A DNA stretch of 24,000 bases, taken from the NCBI RefSeq assembly GCF_014207185.1, contig NZ_JACHCP010000012.1, positions 86,158 to 110,157 of the forward strand, read 5' to 3'. The notes under the pieces are model-generated. The model ran no database searches and was not told the DNA's origin. It worked only from the letters and a program-made list of their open reading frames with translations. Positions 1 through 21,230 of this stretch are shown here, piece by piece; positions within the stretch are counted from its first letter, which is position 1; each line of letters opens with the position of its first letter. Origin of the DNA: Rhodanobacter sp. A1T4 (GTDB lineage: Bacteria; Pseudomonadota; Gammaproteobacteria; Xanthomonadales; Rhodanobacteraceae). The translations under genes were made by a program, and so were the position numbers.

Positions 1-357
1 TGGCGCGGCATGCAAGTTAGCTACGAGGACAAATTTCCCATTCAAAGCGACCCCTTGGGGCATGACGATGAACTAGATAAAGAGTTCGCTTTGAGAATGA
101 TCTCACAAAAGTCTACAGATTGGCGTTATGAAAAGGAGCGGCGTTTGCTCCATTTTGGATCCTCTAATCTTCTCCTTCCCTATACCCCTAAGGCCCTCAC
201 GGGGGTGATTCTTGGATATCGCTGCGAAGATACAGTGCGTTCCGATGTGCTCAATTTGATTGAGAAGCGCGAGGAGAAATTTGGTTACAAGGTTCGCATA
301 TATCGAGCAACTATGTCAGATAGTCGTTACCATTTTTCCATCAGCCGAGAACGATAA
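1..357 (+). CDS. DUF2971-family protein, C-terminal part (5' end outside the window)
   Basis: Frame 1 is open from base 1, with no stop before the ATG at 10. The stop is TAA at 355-357. The translation has the C-terminal W-x-Y-E-x-E-x-R signature I associate with DUF2971 (KSTDWRYEKERRLL). By eye it aligns with the C-terminus of the 2667..3572 product (PKALTGVILGYRCED vs PEALTAVLLGMRISD). Confidence 0.6.
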   Translation, partial: WRGMQVSYEDKFPIQSDPLGHDDELDKEFALRMISQKSTDWRYEKERRLLHFGSSNLLLPYTPKALTGVILGYRCEDTVRSDVLNLIEKREEKFGYKVRIYRATMSDSRYHFSISRER

Positions 358-803
358 GTTTCAGCACCTCCATTATTGGCCGATTACCGTTCGCGTGCGG
401 GCATCCCTGCTTATGGCCAAGCTAACTGTCTGTGCCGATGGCTGGAAGGCTTTAAAGCCTCGTCGCACCAAAGCACTCAGAGAAGGAGGTTGCGGATGTT
501 TCAGCTGCAGCGATCAGAAGCTGATTGAAGCAGTACGGGCCACGGATAGCGATGAAGTCGGTGTGGTTGGGCTGTACCTCGCCACCAAGTTCACACTGGA
601 ATCGTTCGAAACACCAGAACAACGCGCTTAACCCTTATTCTAGCCTTGCTGGGGCGGCGCACCTTTGCGGATCGTATCGAGCATCTGGTCAACTGACTTT
701 TGGCCTGATCGGCCAACCAATCGCAGATGCTAGCTCGCCGTACCGGCGGTCATGTATTCACAAGGTGATAGTTTTGAAACTCGTCGACACTCAGCCGCTC
801 GAA

Positions 804-1535
804 ATGTACTTGGACACAGCTGATCGCCTACAAGCAGAGGTCAAGATTCGCCAGCCAGAATGGTTTGGCGTGCTCATAGAGCTCGATGCGATCTGGCGAA
901 CCGAACTTTTCGGTGAGGCGACGCACCTTGCTCCTGTACCGGCAAGCATCGTTGTTCAGAGCTTCTATTTTTGGCTTGCTGCCGTGCGAGTGGCGTTGTC
1001 CGGACATGCCACTGCGGTATATCCACTTCTCAGAACTGGGCTGGAGGCCGCTTGTTACGCCTACAAGCTGGTGAAAGATCCGACACTCACGTCGGTCTGG
1101 CTCGCGCGTGATAGAAATGCCGAGAGCCGCAAGAAGTGCAGGCAAGCATTCACCTCGGCCGTATCTGAAGTAGCTAAGTTGCCAGAAATTGATCCTCTTC
1201 TAGGTACCGCCATCCGCGAGATGTACGACGCGTGCATAGACTTTGGAGGGCATCCTAATCCACGCGCATTATTTGATCACCTCAACATGTCGGACAACAC
1301 CGGCAGTGACGCGGTCATGATGAGTATCGTTGGCTTGAATGGTCCAACATCGGTGAATACTGTGCGTGCGCTGGCTGCTGCCGCTGAACACGGATTCTTC
1401 GCCATTATCATCTGCGCCAATGCAACTGGAGACCACCCTCGCGCGGACACCCTTCAGCAACGCCTGGATGCTGTGATAGTGAGGGTTCAAGCGCTGACCA
1501 AACCGTATCTCAACGAGACCCGCAAGACACCGTAG
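804..1535 (+). CDS. hypothetical protein, helical, no family recognised
   Basis: This is the 3' part of track ORF 525..1535. I start it at ATG 804 because the 93 upstream codons are S/P/G-rich and do not look protein-like. GTG 765 and TTG 525 remain possible starts, and no start has a strong SD. It lies 50 nt upstream of the DUF4238 gene on the same strand. It contains R-x5-H (RVALSGH), which is only weakly reminiscent of a HEPN motif. Confidence 0.55.
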   Translation: MYLDTADRLQAEVKIRQPEWFGVLIELDAIWRTELFGEATHLAPVPASIVVQSFYFWLAAVRVALSGHATAVYPLLRTGLEAACYAYKLVKDPTLTSVWLARDRNAESRKKCRQAFTSAVSEVAKLPEIDPLLGTAIREMYDACIDFGGHPNPRALFDHLNMSDNTGSDAVMMSIVGLNGPTSVNTVRALAAAAEHGFFAIIICANATGDHPRADTLQQRLDAVIVRVQALTKPYLNETRKTP

Positions 1536-1585
1536 ACGCTGCCAGGTCGGTTAGATTATTTGCTTAATTAAGTAGGGACACCTCG

Positions 1586-2611
1586 ATGCAGCAGCTGCGC
1601 AAGGACAACCACTACGTACCGAGGCTTTACTTGAAGCAGTGGGCACGCAGCGGAAAGATACCGACTTACCGGCTACTCGTGCCCAGTGGCAACTGCCCTC
1701 TGTGGAAGGATCACTCCATCAAAGGCATCGCCTTTCACCAACACTTGTACACGTACGTTGCCGGCCAAGGAGAAACTGACGAGTTCGAACGCTGGCTAGA
1801 CCGAGAATTCGAAAATCCAGCCGAGGAAGCAATCGACCGAGTTATCAATGATCAGCGACTTACCCCTCAACACTGGAGTCAACTGATCAGATTCCTCGCA
1901 GCCCAAGATGTGAGAACACCGGTGCGACTGAAGGAATTTCTTGCTCGTCAAAGCAAAACACTGCTACCTCTTATAAATGAAACTCTGACCAGTTCAGTCG
2001 CAGAGCTTGAAAAGGCTGCTCGAATTGGAGTCCATTTCTCCGCGCCCAAGAGAGATGTGAACGATCTATTTCCTTTTAAAGTCACCATCGCATCCGATGT
2101 TGACGGAGGAGGCATCATTCGAGCCGAAGCTGTTGCCGGCCGGCAACTCTGGCTCGCCTGTTCCCGACATATGCTGACAAGGACCATCTCGCATTTGATA
2201 GCACACCGATGGACCATCCTTCATGCCCCGGATGGCATCACTTGGCCAACTAGCGACAACCCAGTCATCCGCCTCAATTTCGCGGATGCTTACAACTACG
2301 ATTTCTTGGGCGGCTGGGGGCGCCACAATGGCGAGATACTCCTTCCCCTGAGCTCCAAGCATCTCCTCTACACCAAAATCGGCAACAGCCGGCCTCTCCC
2401 TCGTGGCACTACCTTAAATGAGGATACGGCGAGCCTGGTGCGACGAATGATCATAGAGAACGCCGATCGCTTTGTTTTCGCCCAAGAGGAAGGTGACATT
2501 CACCGGATTCGCCCGCGCACAGTCTGTTCTGAGACCTTCAAGCGCGAAAAGCTCGCCTGGCAGAACTGGCATCAAGAGCAGAGCAAGGTAGAAGCCGACT
2601 TCTTACGTTGA
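1586..2611 (+). CDS. DUF4238 domain protein (same domain family as the single-gene anti-phage system Rst_DUF4238)
   Basis: 341-aa ORF. The N-terminal motif DNHYVPRLYLKQW matches the HHYVP-x-FYL signature that I recall defining DUF4238. The family assignment is from memory, not from a search. Confidence 0.7.
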   Translation: MQQLRKDNHYVPRLYLKQWARSGKIPTYRLLVPSGNCPLWKDHSIKGIAFHQHLYTYVAGQGETDEFERWLDREFENPAEEAIDRVINDQRLTPQHWSQLIRFLAAQDVRTPVRLKEFLARQSKTLLPLINETLTSSVAELEKAARIGVHFSAPKRDVNDLFPFKVTIASDVDGGGIIRAEAVAGRQLWLACSRHMLTRTISHLIAHRWTILHAPDGITWPTSDNPVIRLNFADAYNYDFLGGWGRHNGEILLPLSSKHLLYTKIGNSRPLPRGTTLNEDTASLVRRMIIENADRFVFAQEEGDIHRIRPRTVCSETFKREKLAWQNWHQEQSKVEADFLR

Positions 2612-2666
2612 TTACCTCCCTGCCATTACCCCGCCACTGAGACAGCTACCTGAGGAGTCCGCGTCG

Positions 2667-3572
2667 ATGGCTATCTCCGTTTCTAACTTGTGGAAACCAA
2701 CGCCGCGAGACTTGCGTGAGATCGCCGAGAACATCAAGGCGGCATCAGCCATCTTGGCCATGCCACTTCTCAAGCGCCGAGCGCGCATGGTCGAGCTCGG
2801 CTATCGAAGGCATCTATATAAGTTCCGCGATATTCCGGACGACCGAGGGAAGCGCCAGCGACTAGAGCAGATGCTGTTGAATAACGAGCTGTTTGCCGCT
2901 ACGTCGGATACTTTTAATGACCCGTTTGATGCCCAAGCGGATTACCGTATCGAGCAGCAACGGGATGCTCTGCGTGAGCTGGTTTATCGCTATTTGAGGT
3001 CCCAAGGTGCCCCCGACCACCTTGCTCGGAGCCTGGTAGCTGACGCATTGTTGGACGATTCCGCGGCACTCACTGCGTCCATAAAAGCGAGCCACCAACA
3101 ACTCTTGCAGCAGCTAGGTGTGTGCTGCCTGTCGGAGACCGCTACCGATCCGCTGCTTTGGGCACACTACGCGCAAGATCATTGTGGCATTGCTGTTCAG
3201 TACCGACCGAGCCTAGACCCGATGAGCCTCCAGCCGCATCTGGTCCATTACAATGCTGTGTACCCCATCATCGAAAACTTCTTTGACCGGGAGAAGCGCG
3301 ACATCTTCTCGCCTTTGCTTCGAAAATCTCCGTCTTGGGCGTATGAGCGAGAATGGCGCATCCTTCGCCCCAACGCGCCGAATCGCGCCTTTCAGGTACG
3401 TCCCGAAGCGCTGACCGCAGTGCTGCTTGGCATGCGTATTTCCGACGGCGACCGCGAATACATCCGAGGGTTAGTGGGCGAGCGGAACAAGCGCTACGAG
3501 CTTAAGACCCTAGTCTTCCAGGCAGAAGCTGCTGTGGGCGAATATCGAGTACGCATGCGGCGGCTCCGTTGA
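2667..3572 (+). CDS. DUF2971-family protein
   Basis: 301-aa ORF with a GAGGAG SD 9 nt upstream of the ATG. DUF2971-like motifs are seen in order: LFAATSDTFNDPFD, LWAHYAQDHCGIAVQY, SWAYEREWRIL. It is a paralog of the partial gene at 1..357. Confidence 0.7.
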   Translation: MAISVSNLWKPTPRDLREIAENIKAASAILAMPLLKRRARMVELGYRRHLYKFRDIPDDRGKRQRLEQMLLNNELFAATSDTFNDPFDAQADYRIEQQRDALRELVYRYLRSQGAPDHLARSLVADALLDDSAALTASIKASHQQLLQQLGVCCLSETATDPLLWAHYAQDHCGIAVQYRPSLDPMSLQPHLVHYNAVYPIIENFFDREKRDIFSPLLRKSPSWAYEREWRILRPNAPNRAFQVRPEALTAVLLGMRISDGDREYIRGLVGERNKRYELKTLVFQAEAAVGEYRVRMRRLR

Positions 3573-3913
3573 AGTCATGAGTCCGCCGGATTAGCGGCTT
3601 TCGGCCTGTTGATACACGCCTGAATTTGACAACGCTGCCAAAAAAGAGTCGCCAAGGTTGGCGCCATTCCACCGACTCCAAGCCGACGCGTCACTCAAAA
3701 CCGGAGGTGCGTCGGGCAGTGAATACGTAAAGCGATTGCGTCAGCGCGAACGAGACGGAGCCAAGCAGATTCTTTGACATGGCCACCCGGCTTAATGAAT
3801 TGGTCGAGCAAGCCGATATAGCTGTCAAGTATTGGTCGGCAGTCAGCTCAGACACATGAACCAGACCGACGAAAATTTACCTACATTCGCCGCCCCCTCG
3901 ATCATTATCTTCC

Positions 3914-5158
3914 ATGACTCAGCCACCCGTCGTTGACATCCTGTTTCGCGCCATCCTCAGCGGTGATCAAGCTGCACTCCGTGATCTTGAAACTTATCGA
4001 GCGGCGGAATGCGTCGGCCTTCGTTCCGTGATTAGCACCGATCATGCTGGTGCCGTAGCGTTAGATCTCGGACTCGGTGCGACCTCTAGCATCTATGTCA
4101 CACCATTGTTTGAGGGGCCACGGGCATTTTTTATTTCACGTCATATTAGCGTGCAAGCGCGACTCACCAGCGGGAAAACAACGGTCCCGCTCGACTACTC
4201 CCTCAGCTTCGATTCCAACTTTGCGGAAAAAATGCGCGCCACGCTAAACGGGGAGAAAATTCAACAAGCCGACCACGATCGCGTGATCGAAGTCTTAATG
4301 CTCAAGGCAAAGAACTCTCGGGTGCAGTTCGATGTAGTGCCATTCCTCTACGAGAACGTTCGCTTGGTTCGGGACAATGAAAACAATATGAGGCCTTTGA
4401 ATACCCTGATCGCCTTTCGCATGCTCGATCATCTGAACTGGGAGGCTTTCCGCAACGATCCAAGTAGGTTCGATTTCGGTGTTCCTGCAGACACTCTGAA
4501 AGCGTCACTTCGACCAGACGCGGAAGCCTTTCTTACAGACTTGTTTGCCAACCAGTCGATCGTACATCACGAAGCCAAGAGCCTCGGAATTCAAGCGTTA
4601 CTGCTCCGATTTGCCACGCTGTGGCGAAATCAAAGCAAGCGCGACATCGGCCGTATCCTGCACGAACTACTCCAATTCTGCGTATCAGAACTTGGTTTCA
4701 TTCCCACAACCGAATTGAGCCTGATCTGGAGTGGCATTCGCAACAAAGAAGTCGCCCCTTTTTTTGGACCGGTTATCAATCCTTCGGCCAAACTGTTCAA
4801 GGCAGCTCGCGGCATGGCTTGGGATATGACGCATCTCCGACTCATGGAACAAACCGCCCGCCTTACACAATTCGGTTCATTTTTCATTCCGCACTTCGTG
4901 TCTATTGACGAGCGCTGGCGAACGTTGCTGCGCTTGAACCCCGTGCGTTTCATGGTGGTGGACGATGCAAGGAACAGCATGCTACTGGCGCGAACCCACG
5001 AATTGACGTTTCAAGAGGCACTTCACGAGTGTGCTGGAGAAACCTTTCTTGGAGAGGTTAACGCTGAAAAAATCGAAGCCCGCCGCATGGCAGCACAAAG
5101 CATCGATGTAGCCACCATGCAGCAAAGGGTCGCCAAGGAGGAACAAGCCTGGCGCTAA
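3914..5158 (+). CDS. hypothetical protein (414 aa), no domain recognised
   Basis: Long ORF with protein-like composition. It is preceded by a 341-nt non-coding gap and has no obvious SD. It is convergent with the 954-aa NTPase gene, with 65 nt between the two stops. Confidence 0.6.
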   Translation: MTQPPVVDILFRAILSGDQAALRDLETYRAAECVGLRSVISTDHAGAVALDLGLGATSSIYVTPLFEGPRAFFISRHISVQARLTSGKTTVPLDYSLSFDSNFAEKMRATLNGEKIQQADHDRVIEVLMLKAKNSRVQFDVVPFLYENVRLVRDNENNMRPLNTLIAFRMLDHLNWEAFRNDPSRFDFGVPADTLKASLRPDAEAFLTDLFANQSIVHHEAKSLGIQALLLRFATLWRNQSKRDIGRILHELLQFCVSELGFIPTTELSLIWSGIRNKEVAPFFGPVINPSAKLFKAARGMAWDMTHLRLMEQTARLTQFGSFFIPHFVSIDERWRTLLRLNPVRFMVVDDARNSMLLARTHELTFQEALHECAGETFLGEVNAEKIEARRMAAQSIDVATMQQRVAKEEQAWR

Positions 5159-5223
5159 GCGGTGGTTATGCAAAAGCGTCAATCGAGCAATCCGCTTCCA
5201 ACAGTGCACAACATTGGCGGCAG

Positions 5224-8088
5224 CTAGCTCAGGCCAGAATGGGGGACCGGGTCCACGAATACCCGCTCAACACATGCCCAATAGGCGTGATGTAGCTTAC
5301 TGCCAGAGTCAGTCTTGTCACGCAGATCCTTCAACGGCGGCGCCATCCGGATCAACGCTATGGCTTGCTCTAGCCACCCCCCTTTATCCGTCACTCCAGC
5401 GATTTGACTGATCGCGATATGCATGGCGACAAAAAGTCGGCCTGGCGGTGCGCCACGCTTCATAACGAATGCTCGCTCCATTCGCAGTCGCACGACCTCA
5501 AGCGCTGCAACGCGAAGCGCCTGAAACGATGGCTTTTGTCCAAATTCAGAAACAGCCCCAAGCAGCATGGAACCTATATCTCGGGTTTCAAGTTGCTCAA
5601 GCCAGTCCAGCAACTCCTTTGATGACAGTGAATTGATGTACGCATCGACAAGCTTGGCACTTGAAGCGTCGGCCATACAAACCATCACGAAGAACTCGTT
5701 CCCGGTCAGCGGCTCTTGGTTCTTGGCCATTTTTATTGCCGTAATCCTGTTTTTTATCAAACCCTGCGCCAGAGATTCGAATTCGCATCGCTTGATCTCC
5801 GGATCGGTCAGCAACAAATGAAGCACCGCGATACTCCGGCGACTAAGCCATTCAGCGCTCAAGAGAGGGGCACCTTCATCGGCAAGAAGCCGAAGCAACA
5901 GAGGCCGCCGCATCCAGGCTCGAATGTCAGATCGTTTGAAGGCATCCGCCATCGCAGTCCTGAAGGAGTCAAGTGCCGGTCCATTCCTGAGCAAGCGAAT
6001 CAGCCGACCGTAAAGTTTGGGAACCAGCACATTGAGGTCGCGTAATACCTCCTCTGCCAGATCCGCCTTCAGTTTGCCAAACTTGTTCGCCATTGATGCA
6101 GCGATGCCCTCCGTGCTTATGGAATCAACAAGCCACGCCAGCTCCTTCGGACCCTGCTTGCTAGCCATCCGTATCAGATTGTGAAGCGTACCGACCGGCG
6201 CCAGGCGCGCAGCCATTTCCATACGCCCGGCTTTCGCAGCCTTCTGAAGCGCGACCCAAACTTGCGTCACTTCCTCTGTAAAGCCTTCTCGCTCAGCGAA
6301 CGCCAGGAATGAAGGAAGCCCGATGAGAAAGCGCTCTTGGTTGGCGACGTAAGTAGAAATCTGCGAATTGAGCCTGACCCTGAAGTTCTTCTCCAGCCCG
6401 ACCCTTCGAAAGAGACTGGCAATCGCGCCCGAGTAGCCTGGAGAAAAGCGATCCGAGAACGTCCATGCATCAACGCTCACGCGTTCCAACACGGAGCGTG
6501 CGCGGCTCAAGACCTCATCGGATACAACGCCCTCGCTGGAGTTGGGCAGCAACTGCTGAACGAGGTAGCAAGCTTGGAAGAAATCCTCTTTGATCGCACT
6601 CTCCCACGCGTCGTCCTCCTGCTTTTCTAAGGCTTTCAGGACGAGCGCGCCAATCATGGGATGGGCCAGCCCGTAGCGTAGCTCCTGGTTCTTAGCGCGT
6701 TGCTCGAAGACCCATCCAAGCTTCAGTGAAACTTTAGGAATACGGCCCTGGAGGCTCAATCTCGAAGCCGGAAACTCGAAGCGAGCGCAGTGAGCAATCA
6801 CGGCGAGGACTTCACGCTCGTCCTGCGGTAGCTCATCAGTGTAGTGCGTGCGCAAATAGTCAATGGCATCGCGCTCACGCAGCTTGGGTACGACCCCCGA
6901 CCGGAGGCTATCCTCTGCACCGGCCAGTGCGAGCGAAAAGCTCACCAGGTCTGCATACAGTCCAAGCCACGCCTTAAAATCGGCCGCTGAAGGCTCTGGC
7001 GCACCGTTAGGAAAATTGCGCCGCACCATCAACAGGTAGACAGCACGCAAGTCCTCAGCGCGCAGGCGGAGGAGCATCCGGGCCACGTTCAAATCCCAGC
7101 ATAGGGTCGCGATGTCCGCATCATTCTGCTTCCGCGCCACTGCGAGAATGGCCGGGCGATTGTTTGCATCGACGTGTGCATTCAAGACTTGCTTGAGAAG
7201 CTCTGGCTTTATTCGATGGCAGTTGTCCAAGATGAACAGATGCTGGGCGTCTCCAAATATCTTGATCAGTTGGATCAGTTGAGGACAGATTGCCGCCGGA
7301 TCTGGGTAGTCGCTCATGTCCATGTAGTAAGCGCCGCATCCAGGCTGCCTCTGCCACTGAAATCCGAATGCCGTTGCCAACGTCGTCTTGCCCAAACCGC
7401 TTCCACCTTCGATCAGCATCAACGGGCTAGACTTGAGGCATTCTTGTATTCGCTGAAGGAGATCCTCCGCAACGACAGTGCAGGAATTGAACTCCTCCTT
7501 GATAGGCCCTCTCGCATCGGAAAGAACGCGGAGATCTATGGAGTAAAAGGGAGTGATGTCGATGGGCAACCCGATATCGAACAGCACGCGAAGGTACGCA
7601 GGCTGTTGCAATTCCGCGACCAATTGGTCGAGGAAGATGAACCTAATTCTTGCCGACGGCACCCCAAGCGCCTCAATGTCTGACCTGTATTCTTCAATCG
7701 TCTTCTTCGGCTTGGCTACCCTCTTCCGATTCTGCCTGACCAGTATTTCCTTCTCAGTCATCGTGAAGAGTGTGAATTCTGCAACTCTATTTCCGTCTTT
7801 GATGATCTTATGGATGCCCAGAAGGTCCTCGGAGTCAAGATGAGTGCGCCAGTTACCAGTTGTCGTTTCGATCAAGTACAAGCCCTGCGCGTCGTCCTGC
7901 CCGTATGCGTCTGGATAGCCGATCGTGGTCTGGCTGCGAGTGTTGCGTCCCTGCGGCACGAGGTTTCTGTATGCGTCGCCACGCTGGATCCGCATGAAAC
8001 TCTCGGCAAGCTCCTGGAACTTCCCAGGCGCTGGCTTGAGTCGCAAGATAGCTTCCTTGATGGCGGCCTCAGTCGGCATACCTGACAT
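5224..8088 (-). CDS. STAND/NLR-like P-loop NTPase with an N-terminal nuclease-like domain and a C-terminal helical repeat region
   Basis: 954-aa ORF with a GGAG SD 7 nt upstream of ATG 8088. Walker A is GGSGLGKTT (aa 228-236, nt ~7381-7410). Walker B-like is HLFILDNCH (aa 283-291), resembling the NB-ARC hhhhDD box. The N-terminal ~110 aa show an Mrr/PD-(D/E)xK-like pattern (FQELAES...GYPDAY...LYLIETTT). The C-terminal ~550 aa are leucine-rich and look like HEAT/TPR helices. Confidence 0.7.
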   Translation of the reverse strand: MSGMPTEAAIKEAILRLKPAPGKFQELAESFMRIQRGDAYRNLVPQGRNTRSQTTIGYPDAYGQDDAQGLYLIETTTGNWRTHLDSEDLLGIHKIIKDGNRVAEFTLFTMTEKEILVRQNRKRVAKPKKTIEEYRSDIEALGVPSARIRFIFLDQLVAELQQPAYLRVLFDIGLPIDITPFYSIDLRVLSDARGPIKEEFNSCTVVAEDLLQRIQECLKSSPLMLIEGGSGLGKTTLATAFGFQWQRQPGCGAYYMDMSDYPDPAAICPQLIQLIKIFGDAQHLFILDNCHRIKPELLKQVLNAHVDANNRPAILAVARKQNDADIATLCWDLNVARMLLRLRAEDLRAVYLLMVRRNFPNGAPEPSAADFKAWLGLYADLVSFSLALAGAEDSLRSGVVPKLRERDAIDYLRTHYTDELPQDEREVLAVIAHCARFEFPASRLSLQGRIPKVSLKLGWVFEQRAKNQELRYGLAHPMIGALVLKALEKQEDDAWESAIKEDFFQACYLVQQLLPNSSEGVVSDEVLSRARSVLERVSVDAWTFSDRFSPGYSGAIASLFRRVGLEKNFRVRLNSQISTYVANQERFLIGLPSFLAFAEREGFTEEVTQVWVALQKAAKAGRMEMAARLAPVGTLHNLIRMASKQGPKELAWLVDSISTEGIAASMANKFGKLKADLAEEVLRDLNVLVPKLYGRLIRLLRNGPALDSFRTAMADAFKRSDIRAWMRRPLLLRLLADEGAPLLSAEWLSRRSIAVLHLLLTDPEIKRCEFESLAQGLIKNRITAIKMAKNQEPLTGNEFFVMVCMADASSAKLVDAYINSLSSKELLDWLEQLETRDIGSMLLGAVSEFGQKPSFQALRVAALEVVRLRMERAFVMKRGAPPGRLFVAMHIAISQIAGVTDKGGWLEQAIALIRMAPPLKDLRDKTDSGSKLHHAYWACVERVFVDPVPHSGLS

Positions 8089-8243
8089 CGTCGGTCTCCA
8101 GTTTCTCGATAGATATTGTGTTAACAGGCATCGTAGCGTCGCGCGCGAGCGTCTTTCCTAGCGCTACGGCATTTCAGATTGCGAAGCCGCATTGCACTAG
8201 CACGTTACCCCTCACTTCGGCGCACCTCCCTGGATACTTTCAG

Positions 8244-15430: not shown

Positions 15431-18400
15431 TCAAAGAAAACGCATGTCGCTCGCCTTGCGCAATCGACGCAAGATCAGCAGATGGAAGGCTGCGGGGAGA
15501 ACGAGCATGGATAGCAATGGCGCAGTGAGCATGCCGCCGATCATCGGGGCGGCAATGCGCTGCATCACTTCAGAGCCCGCGCCGTGGCCCAGAAGAATGG
15601 GAAAGAGGCCCGCGAGAATCACGGCGACGGTCATCGCCTTGGGCCGCACGCGCTGTACTGCGCCTTCGCGGATCGCTTCGTCGAGTGCAGCGGGTCCTGC
15701 CTGTGGATCGAGTGTCAGTTGTCGCTGCCATGCGTGGTCGAGATAGAGCAACATCACGACACCAAACTCGGCGGCAACACCGGCCAAGGCGATAAAGCCG
15801 ATCATCGTGGCGACCGACACGGCGTGCCCTAGCAACCAGATCAACCACAATCCGCCCACGAGAGCGAGCGGCACACTCGCCATGATCAGGGCCGCTTCAC
15901 TGGCACGGCGAAACACCGCATAGATCAGCCCAAAGATGATGACCAAGGCAATCGGCACGACAAGTTTGAGCCGCGCCATTGCACTGGCCAGATACTCGAA
16001 TTGACCCGACCAAGCGACCGTGACACCGGGCGGCAACATCACCTGTTTTGCCACCGCTCGTTGCAGATCCGTCACAACAGTGCCGAGGTCACGTCCACTC
16101 GTGTCGATATAGACGTAAGTGGCTAACTGGCCGTTTTCGCTTTTCAGCATCGGAGGACCCATCGTCAACGTGACGTCGGCAATCTGGCCGAGAGTCAGTT
16201 GCGCACCGCTCGCCGCGAGGATCGGTAGCTGCCGTAACGCCGCGACCGAATCACGATCAACCCGTGGATAACGGACGACGATCGGATAGCGTTCTCTGCC
16301 CTCGACCGCTTGCCCGATCGGATCGCCACCCACAACCGTCGCGATCAGCTCCTGGACCTTCTGTTGCGTCAATCCATAGCGCGCTGCGTCTTCGCGACGA
16401 AGATGCACATCGACGTAGCGAGCGCCCTCGGCTCGCTCGGCAATGGCCGAACTCACTCCGGGTACGGTCTTGGCGACCGCTTCGACTTTGTCGGCCACTG
16501 TTTGCAACGTGGATGGATCGGGCCCAAGCACTTTGATGCCGATAGGACTCTTGATACCGGTTGCCAACATGTCGATGCGATTGCGAATCGGTGGCACGAA
16601 GAGGTTCGTCAGTCCGGGCACGTGCACCGCCTTGTCCAGTTCGACTTTGAGCTTCGCCATGGTCATACCGGGACGCCATTGGTCCTTTGGCTTGAAGGTG
16701 ATGGTCGTTTCGAACATTTCCAACGGCGCCGGATCAGTGGCGCTTTCCGCACGTCCAGCCTTTCCGAAGACGTGATCGACCTCCGGCACCGTCTTGATCA
16801 TGCGGTCAGTCAGCTGCAAGATCTGCGACGCTTTGCCAGCGGATAAACCCGGTAGCGCAGTCGGCATGTACAGCAACGTGCCCTCGTCCATGGGCGGCAT
16901 AAACTCGCTGCCTAACTGGGTCAACGGAATGGCCGCACTGAGCAAAATAATCCCGGCCATGAGCAAGGTCATCTTGGGAAAGCGCAGCACGGCATTCAGA
17001 ATCGGTCGATACAGAGCGATCAGGCCACGATTGAGCGGATTATGGTTTTCAGCGCGAATCCGTCCACGCACCAGATACCCCATCAGCACCGGCACCAGAG
17101 TGACCGCCAAACCAGCCGCGGCAGCCATGGCGTAGGTCTTGGTGAACGCGAGTGGCTTGAACAGCTTGCCTTCCTGGCCTTCGAGCGCGAATACGGGCAC
17201 GAATGACAACGCGATGATCAGCAGGCTGACAAAGAGTGCTGGCCCGACCTCAGCCGCTGACTCGGCGATCATCGCCCAACGCGAGGCACCTTGGGGTTCT
17301 TTCCCATCGTTTGCATCGCGCCAATGTTCCAGATGCTTGTGCGTATTTTCGATCATCACCACGGCGGCATCGATCATGGCGCCTATGGCAATCGCGATAC
17401 CGCCCAGAGACATCAGATTGGCCGACACACCTTGCAGATGCATCACCATGAAAGCGGTCAGCACACCCAACGGCAAGGTGATCACCGCGACCAGTGCCGA
17501 GCGCAAATGGCCAAGGAACAGCACGCACACCAACGCAACGACGAGAAATTCCTCCAGCAATTTGCCCCACAGGTTTTCAACGGCGGCATCAATCAGCTGT
17601 GAGCGATCGTAGGTGGGCACTATCTCAACGCCAGGGGGCAAGCTGCGTTTCAGCTCGTCGAGCTTGGCCTTCACGGCGGCGATCGCGGCTTTGGCGTTCT
17701 TGCCTGTGCGCAACACAATCACGCCACCGGCAACTTCGCCTTGGCCATCCAGTTCGGTGATGCCACGCCGAAAACTGGGGCCTCGCCTTACTGTCGCAAC
17801 GTCGCGCAATAGCACCGGCACGCCGCTGGCGTTGATGGTGATTGGCACACGCTCAAAGTCCTCGCTGCTGCGAAGATAGCCTTCGCTGCGCACCATCAGT
17901 TCGGCTTCACCTTGTTCGATCACCGAGCCACCATTCGCACCGTTGGCCTCGCGGACTGCCTCGACCAATTGCGAAATGGTGACGTTGCGGGCGGCTAACT
18001 GATTCGGATCAGGCACGATCTGCCAGGCGCGTTCCATGCCGCCGAGACTTGCCACTTCGGCGACATCCGGAACGGTCTTGAGCTGAAAGCGCAAGAACCA
18101 ATCCTGCAGTGCGCGAAGCTGGCCAATGTCATGTTTGCCCGTACGATCGACCAAGGCGTACTCGTAGATCCAACCCAGACCGGTTGCGTCCGGGCCCAGC
18201 GTCGGGGAGACGCCTGCCGGCAAACGATCGCGTACCTGACTGAGGTATTCGAGTACCCGTGAGCGGGCCCAATAGAGATCCGTGCTGTCATCGAACAGCA
18301 CGTAGACATACGAATCCCCGAAGAATGAATATCCGCGTACCGTCTTGGCTCCCGGTACGGAGAGCATGGTGGTGACCAGCGGATAGGTAACCTGATCCTC

Positions 18401-18583
18401 GACTATCTGGGGTGATTGACCGGGCCAGTTCGTACGTACGATCACCTGGGTGTCGGACAGATCCGGCAGCGCATCAACCGGCGTGTGCAGGGCGGCGAAC
18501 ACGCCAGCAAGCGCCAACGCCAATGCGGCGAGCAGGACAAATACGCGATGCGCGATCGCTGCGCGAATAAGGGCGGCGATCAT
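15431..18583 (-). CDS. cusA: CusA-type heavy-metal (Cu+/Ag+) RND efflux pump, inner-membrane subunit
   Basis: 1050 aa, collinear with recalled E. coli CusA from the N-terminus ([17 protein letters not shown]) to the C-terminus. The three-methionine Cu(I)/Ag(I) site contexts are conserved: [35 protein letters not shown]. These correspond to M573/M623/M672 in E. coli numbering, from memory. Confidence 0.95.
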
Positions 18584-19869
18584 GGGTTTGTCCCCATCGT
18601 CATGCCCGGCATGGCAACGCTGGACGCGGGTGCCGGTGGGTCATCCAGGCGTTCCAATGCGCCGGACAAGCTGGCTTCCGAATCGATGAGGAATTGGCCG
18701 GACACCACTACCTTTTCGCCGCCAGCGAGCCCCTCGAGAATTTCGGTATAGCCCCCTGCCGCGCGTCCTGTGCGAACGGCAATGGCACGGAAATGGCCGC
18801 CGTCTTCGGCAACGATCACGCGCGTGTCGGCGCCCGACGCAATCAGTGCATCGTCGGGCACGACCGGCACAGCCTTGCCGGACGCCGGATCAAGCTGCAC
18901 CGTCGCGAACATGCCCGGACTCAACACCCCGTCGGGATTGGCGAGGACGATGCGCATGTGCTGCGTTCGGGTTGTCATGTCGATGTCGGGTAGCAACGAT
19001 TCGACGTGGCCATGAAATACCTGTCCTGGCAGCGCGTCGATACTCACGGTGACCGGTGTGTCGGCGCGCATCGTGCCGGCCACCGACTGCGGCAAAGCGG
19101 CGTCTACCCATACAGTGGAAATGCCGTTGATCGTCATCAACGTTTGACCCGCGTTGACACGTTGACCTTCACGCACGTCCAGTGTGCTGAGAACGCCGGC
19201 CTGCGGGGCTCGCAACGTAATCTGACCGTTGCTTCCCATCGAACGACTATCCGCCGGAGATAGACCGAGCACCCTCAGGCGTTGTTGCGCCGCGCCGCGC
19301 AAGGCCTTGGCCTCTGTTGATTGCACGTGCTGCAACGCTTGGGCTTCAGCCACGGCGCTGCTCCATTGAGGAGCCAACACGTCGGCGAGAGGCGCACCTG
19401 CCTTGACGCTCGCGTAAGGAGTGCGCACGTAGAGCTTGTTCACCACCGCGTCGACGCGAGCACTGACGACCACAGCCTGACTCAGGTCCCAACCGATTGT
19501 GCCGGGCACTTGTACCGTTGCCGACAGCATGCGGCGCTCAACCGGAGCGGTACGCACGCCGAGGTTTTGTACGGTCGCGGCATCAATGCTTACGGTGTTC
19601 GGGTCAGCGTCGGCGTTGGCGTATTTGGGCACCATCTGCATGCCCATCGACGATAGCCCCGGCTTGTCCGAATGCTGCGCGGGCACCATCGGGTCATACC
19701 AGTACAGCACTTTCGCGGTTGCGGTCTGCGCGGGCGATCCTGTGCCGACAGAATGATCGGCGGACGTTCCATCTTGAGCACCGTCGTGGTGGCGATCTAT
19801 CAAATACGCGCCGACCGCAGTAACCAACAGCCCTGCGAGGATGGAAGAAATCAACAGTGCGCGTTTCAT
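18580..19869 (-). CDS. cusB: CusB-type periplasmic adaptor (membrane fusion protein)
   Basis: 429 aa. [28 protein letters not shown] matches the CusB N-terminal Met-rich metal site region. ATGA overlaps with both neighbours (19866-19869 and 18580-18583) imply translational coupling. Confidence 0.9.
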
Positions 19870-21158
19870 GGAGAATCCCCTTCAGGCAGTAAATAGGTCA
19901 GGGCTGCCCAGGCACGGCCGTAGTCGGTCAACATGCGGGCGTAGTCGGTGTGATGAGTAATTTCGGCACGACGCGCTTCGAGGAGAGGCTCGATGTCGCC
20001 GCCACCCCGATAGGTCGCCAAGGCCAGCGCGGCACGATCGTTGGCTTGCGGTAGAAGCTCGTTGACATGCCGACGCGTCTGTCGTCCCAGCGCATCCCAT
20101 TGCGCCCAACCCGTCTGCACGGCTTCTGCTTGCTGACGCTTCGCGTCGTCGTGCTCTGCACGAACCGCATCCAGATCGGCCGAGCGGGCACTGATGCCGC
20201 GATCCTGTCGATTGCGCGTAAACAGCGGCAACGACACGCCCACCTGGAGCGACACCATGTCGGATAACCCTCGAACACGAGAGCCGTAAGTCAAACCAAC
20301 GCTCCACTCCGGATGCTTCTCGGCCTCAGCCTCGGCCAGCGCAGCTTCGGCTTCCTGCTCGCGTGCAGGCCAGTCCAGGAGATTGCCTTGCCGATCAACA
20401 CTGGTCAGCAACGAGGGCTCGTCATGGGGCAGCACAGAAAAATCGGGCGGATCAGCAAGCGGTTCGGTGACGGGATGGCCCAACCAGCGGCCTAAAGCTG
20501 CGCGAGCCTGGGTCTCGCGTGAGGTCACATCATCGATGCGATTCTCCAAGTCGAGGGCCTCCATCCGCATCGCGAGAACGTCAGCTGCTGATCCGGCACC
20601 CCCTCGCAATCTCGCTTGAGCGACCTCAACATCCACGGCCCACTCGCGTCGCATGGACTGCAGCATCTTCAATTCATGGTGGGCGCCCCAGGCATTTACC
20701 CAGGCATCCGCCACTTGTTGCTCGATCCCTAACCGAGTCATCACCGTGGTCGATGTGGCCTGCTCGACGTTGGCGTCGGCGAGGTCACGCTGGGCTTGGC
20801 GTTTAGCCCTTGATGGCAGCACCTGTGTAAGCCCCACCGTGCGCATCGTCATCGTGTCCCCACCGGCTGTAAATGCACCCGCTCCCTGGATAGCGAGATT
20901 GTCGATACCGACGGAAAGCTGCGGATCCGGCAAGGCGCCGGCACGCGCGGCCTCCTCATGGGCCGATTGCTGTTGGGCGTAGCGTGCCTCCAGCAATGGC
21001 GCTTGCGAGGCTGCTTGCCGTGTCGCGGTTTCCAGCGTTAGAGGTGACGCCGGATCGTCAGCCCAAGCAGGCGACACGAAGAAAATAGCGGCGGCCATCA
21101 ATAGGCAACGCCGAACACGGACCGACAAGGTCCGCGTCAAGATTTGTTGGCAAAACAT
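19866..21158 (-). CDS. cusC: Outer-membrane factor of the HME-RND system (CusC/CzcC, TolC family)
   Basis: I start it at ATG 21158 (Met18 of the track ORF), which has GGAG 6 nt upstream. The signal peptide ends ..SPAWA-DD and has no lipobox Cys. The CzcC-like motif GALPDPQLSVGIDNLAIQG is present. Confidence 0.85.
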   Translation of the reverse strand: MFCQQILTRTLSVRVRRCLLMAAAIFFVSPAWADDPASPLTLETATRQAASQAPLLEARYAQQQSAHEEAARAGALPDPQLSVGIDNLAIQGAGAFTAGGDTMTMRTVGLTQVLPSRAKRQAQRDLADANVEQATSTTVMTRLGIEQQVADAWVNAWGAHHELKMLQSMRREWAVDVEVAQARLRGGAGSAADVLAMRMEALDLENRIDDVTSRETQARAALGRWLGHPVTEPLADPPDFSVLPHDEPSLLTSVDRQGNLLDWPAREQEAEAALAEAEAEKHPEWSVGLTYGSRVRGLSDMVSLQVGVSLPLFTRNRQDRGISARSADLDAVRAEHDDAKRQQAEAVQTGWAQWDALGRQTRRHVNELLPQANDRAALALATYRGGGDIEPLLEARRAEITHHTDYARMLTDYGRAWAALTYLLPEGDSP

Positions 21159-21230
21159 GGATAGCTCCGATGACAAGACCGTACGGGCCATGCACGCAGG
21201 CATGACCACCGAATGGCTAGCAATCGAGGG

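Follow-up and report, generated by a model that had tools for sequence, protein, structure and literature searches.

What is the function of the long open reading frame (ORF) at positions 5224-8088 of this stretch of the Rhodanobacter sp. A1T4 genome, and does its product serve immunity? The window that we analyzed is the whole stretch of 24,000 nucleotides (contig NZ_JACHCP010000012.1, positions 86,158 to 110,157). We found that the ORF, which lies on the minus strand, encodes a STAND NTPase core placed between an N-terminal domain with a restriction-endonuclease-like fold and a variable, all-helical C-terminal region. From the architecture, folds, motif conservation, modular N-termini and mobile or island context that we observed in its family, we conclude that the gene was probably acquired by horizontal transfer and that its product is probably a stand-alone, NLR-like STAND protein serving conflict or immunity. 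The gene occurs without a conserved neighbor, in contexts that include mobile elements and islands. The gene and its parts are as follows.

5224..8088, minus strand: whole ORF, 954 amino acids plus stop codon (ORF list, translation, homolog search)
8096..8099, minus strand: GGAG, ribosome-binding-site-like sequence 7 nucleotides before the ATG (direct sequence reading)
7519..8088, minus strand: N-terminal domain, amino acids 1-190, candidate effector with a restriction-endonuclease-like fold (AlphaFold2 model, Foldseek, conservation)
7861..7914, minus strand: active-site-like motif P59-D60 ... E74-x-T76 (family conservation)
7060..7476, minus strand: P-loop nucleotide-binding domain, amino acids 205-343 (AlphaFold2 model, Foldseek, conservation)
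7381..7407, minus strand: Walker A GGSGLGKTT, amino acids 228-236 (translation, conservation)
7216..7239, minus strand: Walker B LFILDNCH, amino acids 284-291 (translation, conservation)
6619..7059, minus strand: helical and winged-helix domains, amino acids 344-490 (AlphaFold2 model, conservation)
5227..6618, minus strand: C-terminal all-helical domain, amino acids 491-954, candidate sensor (AlphaFold2 model, conservation, repeat analysis)

The ORF opens with ATG, and the NCBI entry identical to its translation, from Rhodanobacter sp. A1T4, is annotated as a hypothetical protein. Besides this identical record, a word-seeded search returned three more homologs: two (from a metagenome and from Aquitalea aquatica) that are 45% identical across the full length, and a third, of 1,250 amino acids, with 25% identity. 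An exhaustive profile search over 1.84 billion cluster representatives gave 598 related clusters at E <= 1e-3 and 218 at E <= 1e-30, the family-wide conserved part being query residues ~1-500. Because an identical NCBI protein, full-length homologs and 598 family clusters exist, we conclude that the ORF is a real gene, as a preliminary description of this DNA had held without giving its strand, and that it belongs to a modest-sized family. Identity to the closest homologs is highest in the N-terminal domain (54-56%), followed by the helical and winged-helix domains (51-53%) and the nucleotide-binding domain (49-50%), and is lowest in the C-terminus (35-39%). A PHROGs search with the STAND protein gave no match, nor did Rfam, transfer RNA and sigma-70 promoter scans.

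We modeled the full-length protein with AlphaFold2 from a 39-sequence alignment (mean predicted local distance difference test score, pLDDT, 87.6), and assessed conservation of the core across 127 aligned cores of the family. The STAND NTPase region as a whole spans amino acids ~205-490, and its P-loop domain contains five strands in the model (223-228, 252-257, 283-288, 313-319 and 336-340). Both P-loop signatures of STAND proteins are present, GxxxxGK[ST] as GGSGLGKTT (228-236) and hhhhD as LFILD (284-288); G233 and K234 of Walker A and D288 of Walker B are 100% conserved. Translation thus confirmed the Walker A motif and the Walker B motif LFILDN (284-289) that the preliminary description had reported. 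The sensor-1 arginine of STAND proteins is found as R319, at the end of strand 313-319 and 97% conserved. As in other STAND proteins, a helical domain with a GxP-type motif (344-435) and a winged-helix unit with a histidine (hairpin 460-474 plus helix 477-486) come next. The GxP-like segment includes W374, D380-L381, F384 and A387; D380-L381 is 98% conserved in the consensus FGGDLxAFSAA, with Asp standing where GxP has Pro, and the segment is similar to the GxP/GLPL motif of STAND proteins. The winged-helix hairpin is followed at once by the MHD-like H476, 100% conserved, which corresponds in position to the MHD/LHD histidine found in NB-ARC proteins. The second acidic residue that STAND proteins usually carry after the Walker B Asp (DD or DE) is absent, its place being taken by N289; family-wide, Walker B reads hhhhD-N-x-H, with N289 94% and H291 100% conserved. 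On this pattern, the family likely binds nucleoside triphosphate (NTP), and hydrolysis may be slow or altered.

When the full-length model was compared with the PDB by Foldseek, SAMD9, Avs3, 6mfv, EfAvs5 and MalT filled places 1-9. Human SAMD9 was the top match (E = 1.4e-10), followed by Avs3 bound to terminase (8dgc; 1.7e-8), the STAND-TPR protein 6mfv (1.1e-6), EfAvs5 (8e-6) and MalT (1.2e-5); the AAA+ proteins FtsH, p97, ORC/Cdc6 and RuvB ranked lower (3.5e-5 and weaker). Global template-modeling (TM) scores were ~0.2, as expected because these are multi-domain proteins in different conformations. Transposition and replication ATPases were considered and rejected: IstB, DnaA and TniB matched as P-loop noise (E = 0.009-0.08; 13-16 bits against cut-offs of 24-410 in Pfam and NCBIfam), and TadA was noise as well. 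Because STAND structures lead the fold matches and IstB, DnaA and TniB give only noise, we conclude that the core is a STAND NTPase, as first proposed, and not a transposition or replication ATPase.

By Pfam, the formally best match of the protein was AAA_22 (E = 5e-4, sub-threshold). The specific NTPase family that fits the group best is nSTAND_NTPase5 (PF25199), which matched amino acids 196-320 (profile 14-134 of 145) at E = 1.6e-3 and 18.7 bits, against a gathering cut-off of 34; NACHT matched the P-loop only (amino acids 224-249; E = 0.017, 15.4 bits against 26.7), and nSTAND3 also gave E = 0.017 (15.3 bits against 27.2). Among 39 diverse family members, nSTAND_NTPase5 was found in 11 at E <= 1e-3 (best 4.7e-8), nSTAND3 in 5 and NACHT in 3 (best 1.4e-4). 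All four of the closest members matched nSTAND3 weakly, and the precomputed Pfam record of one homolog (P0009) lists nSTAND_NTPase5. Judged by these scores, the family is at or beyond the edge of the nSTAND_NTPase5 model. PADLOC (PADLOC-DB 2.0) returned only PDC-S01, mad8 and TRIP13, at E values from 3.7e-4 to 0.03.

We modeled amino acids 1-200 separately, from an alignment of 34 N-terminal domains (pLDDT 90.1; predicted TM-score 0.83). The model contains, in order, a helix (21-36), short strands (44-54), a strand (61-64), a strand (69-76), a helix (80-97) and a strand (101-109); the modeled order, alpha-beta-beta-beta-alpha-beta, is that of the core of the restriction-endonuclease fold, the fold of the PD-(D/E)xK superfamily. 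The top-ranked Foldseek matches in the PDB scored weakly and were mostly PD-(D/E)xK-fold proteins: the best was the R.BspD6I small subunit (E = 2e-3, TM 0.41/0.44), followed by Card1 (E ~1e-2), Can2, XPF, Mus81 and NucS/EndoMS, and SfsA, a Cas4-family protein and Kpn2I were also matched. The expectation of a nuclease fold in the N-terminal 200 amino acids was therefore borne out by the model and by Foldseek, with D60 and E74 at the canonical strands.

Across 74 family N-domains, D60 and E74 are 100% conserved, accompanied by Q25 (93%) and E29 (92%) on helix 1, G47 (97%), R48 (88%), G57 (93%), P59 (96%), W80 (96%), H83 (97%) and D88 (97%), a pattern that looks like an active site. D60 starts core strand 2 and E74-x-T76 lies within strand 3, the canonical positions of D...(D/E)xK. 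The acidic residues of the superfamily are thus found on strand 2 (D60), strand 3 (E74) and helix 1 (E29, likely the helix-1 acid of the active site). The canonical Lys, two residues past the strand-3 Glu, is replaced by T76, which is Thr in 92% and Ser in 8% of the domains. With a conserved Thr in the place of the catalytic Lys, the domain is not certain to be an active nuclease. Catalytic residues are known to migrate in this superfamily, and in its PD-EXX-K variant, exemplified by Pa4535, the Lys lies on the second core helix (PMC3424549). The second core helix here bears H83 and D88, and we infer that these two residues, or R48, may complete the active site in place of the Lys.

The preliminary description had built its Mrr/PD-(D/E)xK likeness on E26, P59-D60 and E74-T-T. 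All of these residues are where it placed them, but E26 is not conserved (the consensus is Arg, with Q25 and E29 conserved instead); the PD-(D/E)xK fold held, and Mrr held as a likeness of pattern only, as none of the 34 N-terminal domains matched Mrr_cat (PF04471) at E <= 5. Mrr_cat belongs to the same fold class and shares the motif order, namely a F-Q/E-x-L helix, a G-R...G-x-P-D strand and an E-x-[K/T] strand. The family differs in the conserved Thr/Ser in place of Lys and in the additional conserved W80, H83 and D88 on the second helix. Aligned with the Mrr_cat protein that neighbors the Duganella homolog ('...DAYGQDD...LIETTTGNW' against '...FAYAQND...VFECKCW'), E-T-T falls under E-C-K and T76 under the Lys, at a non-significant hhalign probability of ~1%. 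'Mrr-like' is a description of the pattern of this domain, not a family assignment. Pfam found no family at E <= 5 in the 34 domains, and PDB sequence searches with full-length and N-domain profiles returned noise only; a homeodomain-like match at amino acids 121-150 (E = 0.013) was dismissed as chance.

The C-terminal 464 amino acids (491-954) were modeled as a stack of 10-17-residue helices, with 74% helix, zero strand and 12.9% Leu. Self-comparison detected no significant sequence period in this C-terminus or in those of the two closest homologs (z <= 3.7), and a repeat hidden Markov model built from a distant member matched this protein at E = 4.3. The tail had been described at first as helical, leucine-rich repeats: its helical character held, but a leucine-rich-repeat sensor was rejected (no LxxLxLxxN beta-strand repeats, zero strand, no periodicity), and repeats are present only as the helical stack of the model. 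Because only 14 of 152 family representatives share this C-terminus (phmmer), we regard the tail as a helical domain that varies within the family, which would suit a sensor. A 45-amino-acid repeat, whose consensus in distant members is QTLAERALQTPLDSLANFLGYAARTTELKPVFTALTADLALPVNR, occurs in 85 of the 152 representatives. Near-identical tandem copies of it number twelve in homolog P0007 (amino acids 586-1125) and eight in P0004 (amino acids 593-943). The high identity among these copies suggests recent expansion or shuffling of repeats in the sensor, for which the hypervariable repeats of NLRs offer a precedent.

Most of the top family members retain the same N-domain. A few relatives carry other heads: a ThsB-like TIR (PADLOC, 8e-52), SIR2_2, PNP_UDP_1 and a PN-superfamily effector. 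Heads of these kinds are the ones that immune STANDs classically exchange. Together, the fold matches, the conservation of the core and the head swaps support the tripartite STAND/NLR-like layout that had been proposed for this protein.

No neighboring gene was conserved across the examined loci, whose contexts were as follows.

This window: gene convergent with an unrelated block of two DUF2971/PDC-S31 genes, a DUF4238 gene and two hypothetical genes (one with a PHROG match)
Aquitalea: gene immediately upstream of tnsA-tnsB-tniB-tniQ, ending 218 bp before tnsA
Duganella: gene in cargo, preceded by tniB-tniQ, an Mrr_cat protein and DUF4238 and followed by an HNH (HNH_2) gene
Metagenomic homolog: gene flanked by two integrases, with a kinase-helicase fusion and a SUKH gene nearby
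Other homologs: by a PIN_4 gene; flanked by FecR/TonB genes and a two-partner secretion system; among housekeeping genes
Rhizobiaceae: homologs (28% identity) carried by four conjugative plasmids

The two loci with Tn7-like genes, in Aquitalea and Duganella, lie at 13086-17536 of locus L001 and 176-3142 of L008; a related-locus search from alignment A4 found only these two, and no Tn7 end repeats were seen in the gap between the Aquitalea homolog and tnsA. The fusion near the metagenomic homolog (L003, 2960-6364) is a protein of 1,134 amino acids that joins a Ser/Thr protein kinase to an AAA_11/AAA_12 helicase, possibly another defense gene. On plasmid pRL8 of Rhizobium johnstonii 3841 (L012, 3811-6666), a homolog of 951 amino acids annotated as 'ATP-binding protein' lies directly after repABC, and similar copies are found on Agrobacterium vitis and Ensifer adhaerens plasmids.

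The GC content of window positions 1-8460 is 0.54, against 0.594 in the remainder of the window, and the low-GC tract runs at least 4.8 kb past the left edge of the window; this drop fits a horizontally acquired island. The low-GC (0.47-0.56) island adjoining the gene extends over at least 13 kb (window 1-5158; L006 12931-22865) and is probably a defense or accessory island. Its genes within the window are the following.

10-357: DUF2971/PADLOC PDC-S31 (partial)
525-1535: protein of 336 amino acids matching phrog_36906
1586-2611: DUF4238
2667-3572: DUF2971/PADLOC PDC-S31
3914-5158: orphan of 414 amino acids

A DUF4238 gene also adjoins the Duganella homolog. The convergent neighbor of 414 amino acids was considered as a conserved partner gene and rejected: it has no match in Pfam, PADLOC, NCBIfam or PHROG, and it is not similar to the gene downstream of homolog P0006. 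No tns genes lie within 10 kb on either side of the locus. The rest of the window (8750-13770 and 15431-21209) is ordinary-looking, higher-GC chromosome with genes for a TetR regulator and FAD monooxygenase, an AraC/cupin regulator, an alpha/beta hydrolase, DUF4142, an aldo-keto reductase and an RND efflux pump (ACR_tran, 1050 amino acids) with two upstream genes.

Upstream of the STAND gene, the 660-bp gap that separates it from the TetR gene contains a further feature.

8243..8449, no strand assigned: intergenic array of 5-6 copies of a 17-22-nucleotide motif in both orientations (sequence scan)

The motif is CACATACTTTGGTTGTC, its reverse complement GACAGCAAAGTATGTGC, and the array includes a 24-nucleotide hairpin (8397-8449). 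The 18-mer consensus of the array gave 0.02 chance matches per shuffle. We considered whether the motif is common to other loci and rejected this, as it was absent from the other homologous loci. It resembles the TnsB-binding repeats of Tn7-type elements (Tn7: GACAATAAAGT...). The array is possibly an operator array, which the mixed orientations of its copies would fit, or a remnant of a Tn7-like transposon end, and its tie to the gene is uncertain.

Sensors built from an effector, a STAND core and repeats are a familiar type, with hundreds of clades on record. Avs proteins with nuclease effectors (SeAvs3, 8dgc; EcAvs4) have the same single-gene tripartite layout of nuclease-fold effector, STAND and helical sensor and the same island or mobile-element context, and Avs3 is the best bacterial structural match of the Rhodanobacter protein. 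The latter differs from Avs3 in being about half the size (954 against ~2,000 amino acids), and from the Avs nucleases in its D...E-x-T, rather than D...E/Q-x-K, motif, in lacking a Pfam nuclease family and in its Walker B D-N. It falls outside the Avs1-5 models of PADLOC-DB 2.0 and bNACHT as modeled in Pfam, and a profile sequence search matched no PDB chain of the Avs7-24 families. The judgment of the preliminary description that the protein is short for an Avs and not placeable in a known Avs class thus agrees with our results. To the group of SAMD9, Avs5 (with Pfam nSTAND3), Avs6 and Avs9, the protein is linked by its fold matches to SAMD9 and EfAvs5, by the weak nSTAND3 matches of all four closest homologs and by the helical repeat sensor after the NTPase; the global TM of ~0.2 and the sub-threshold nSTAND3 match separate it from them. 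The heads of that group are AlbA_2 and SIR2 in SAMD9 and Avs9, SIR2 in Avs5 and PNP in Avs6 (PMC12680541), unlike the restriction-endonuclease fold found here.

We propose a mechanism modeled on characterized Avs proteins (PMC13581612; Avs3 structure 8dgc). The variable helical tail would bind a ligand derived from an invader, probably a phage protein, and binding would open an ADP-locked state held by the winged-helix residue H476. NTP binding would then drive oligomerization of the STAND core, and the clustered restriction-endonuclease-fold heads would cut nucleic acid and abort infection. Ligand sensing, oligomerization, nuclease activity and the anti-phage outcome are all inferred by analogy. 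Of the earlier proposal of a single-protein phage sensor with a nuclease effector, the stand-alone nature and the nuclease-fold head therefore hold as results, but nuclease activity and phage sensing enter only as parts of this model.

Several observations weigh against an active immune sensor of this kind. The Walker B motif carries D-N rather than D-D/E, and NTP hydrolysis may therefore be poor. The protein reaches no curated Pfam threshold; no PADLOC Avs model was matched by it or by the 39 members, its best PADLOC match being PDC-S01 (E = 3.7e-4). Matches to the fold of the N-domain are weak (E = 2e-3 to 0.3, TM 0.3-0.44), and with the conserved Thr/Ser for Lys its chemistry may differ or be lost. 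Finally, the neighbors of homologs P0004 and P0009 are housekeeping or secretion genes, and no homolog was found in the phage collection. We advance a more specific reading tentatively: the ~600 clusters may form an undescribed Avs-like family that combines an unclassified effector, impaired hydrolysis, rapidly diversifying sensors (in many members with 8-12 of the near-identical 45-amino-acid tandem repeats) and a trigger so far assigned to no Avs family. The effector motif would be Q..E / GR / PD / E-x-T / W..H....D, which is absent from Pfam, and the effector might cut a substrate other than double-stranded DNA. A rather unlikely rival explanation is that the head of this STAND sensor is not a deoxyribonuclease at all, being instead an RNA- or nucleotide-directed enzyme of altered chemistry (D/E/T/H site), or a catalytically dead DNA-binding or adaptor domain that recruits another effector. 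The supplanting of Lys by T76 across the family, the lack of any Pfam nuclease family at E <= 5 in 34 members and the presence among the fold matches of non-catalytic proteins of this fold, such as RPB5 of the African swine fever virus polymerase and SfsA, all point this way, and restriction-endonuclease-fold proteins with other active sites, such as tRNA-splicing endonucleases, are documented (PMC3424549). Yet with D60 and E74 invariant and Q25, E29, H83 and D88 conserved at 92-97%, the site does not look decayed; a Lys moved to the second core helix, the one that here bears H83, has the precedent of Pa4535 (PMC3424549); and the loci share no partner effector gene.

It is improbable that the protein is a STAND without an immune role, such as a signaling or regulatory ATPase or a factor that serves Tn7-like transposons or plasmids. 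Two examined loci do tie homologs to Tn7-like genes, one plasmid copy lies directly after repABC, a motif array lies upstream of the gene, and in the phylogeny of a 2026 census, in which 198 of 589 prokaryotic STAND clades are defense-associated, defense and non-defense clades are interspersed (PMC13581612). However, the protein has no DNA-binding output domain of the MalT/AfsR type, the window locus lacks tns genes within 10 kb on either side, and the position of the gene relative to tns differs between Aquitalea and Duganella, as would that of cargo; furthermore, the heads found on its siblings (TIR, SIR2 and PNP) are typical of immune effectors, and its matches to IstB and TniB-type profiles are at noise level. 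A generic AAA+ ATPase that lacks a modular immune architecture and matches the motifs by chance would agree with the sub-threshold Pfam matches and with AAA_22 as the formally best of them, but this explanation is effectively refuted by the confident models of all three regions, by the ranking of STAND structures above AAA+ ones, by the conserved winged-helix His and sensor-1 Arg, and by the 598 homologous clusters. We therefore favor the stand-alone STAND immunity protein.

The protein does not represent a new principle and is an uncharacterized member of an established type. Two of its properties are unusual, a conserved form of the restriction-endonuclease active site that lacks the Lys and a Walker B without the catalytic acid; a third, the near-identical 45-amino-acid arrays of its relatives, makes the family a tractable case for the diversification of NLR-like sensors. 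If the protein is an active immune sensor, it would add to the known systems a compact (954 amino acids), single-gene STAND defense family of environmental Proteobacteria that travels on Tn7-like elements, genomic islands and conjugative plasmids.

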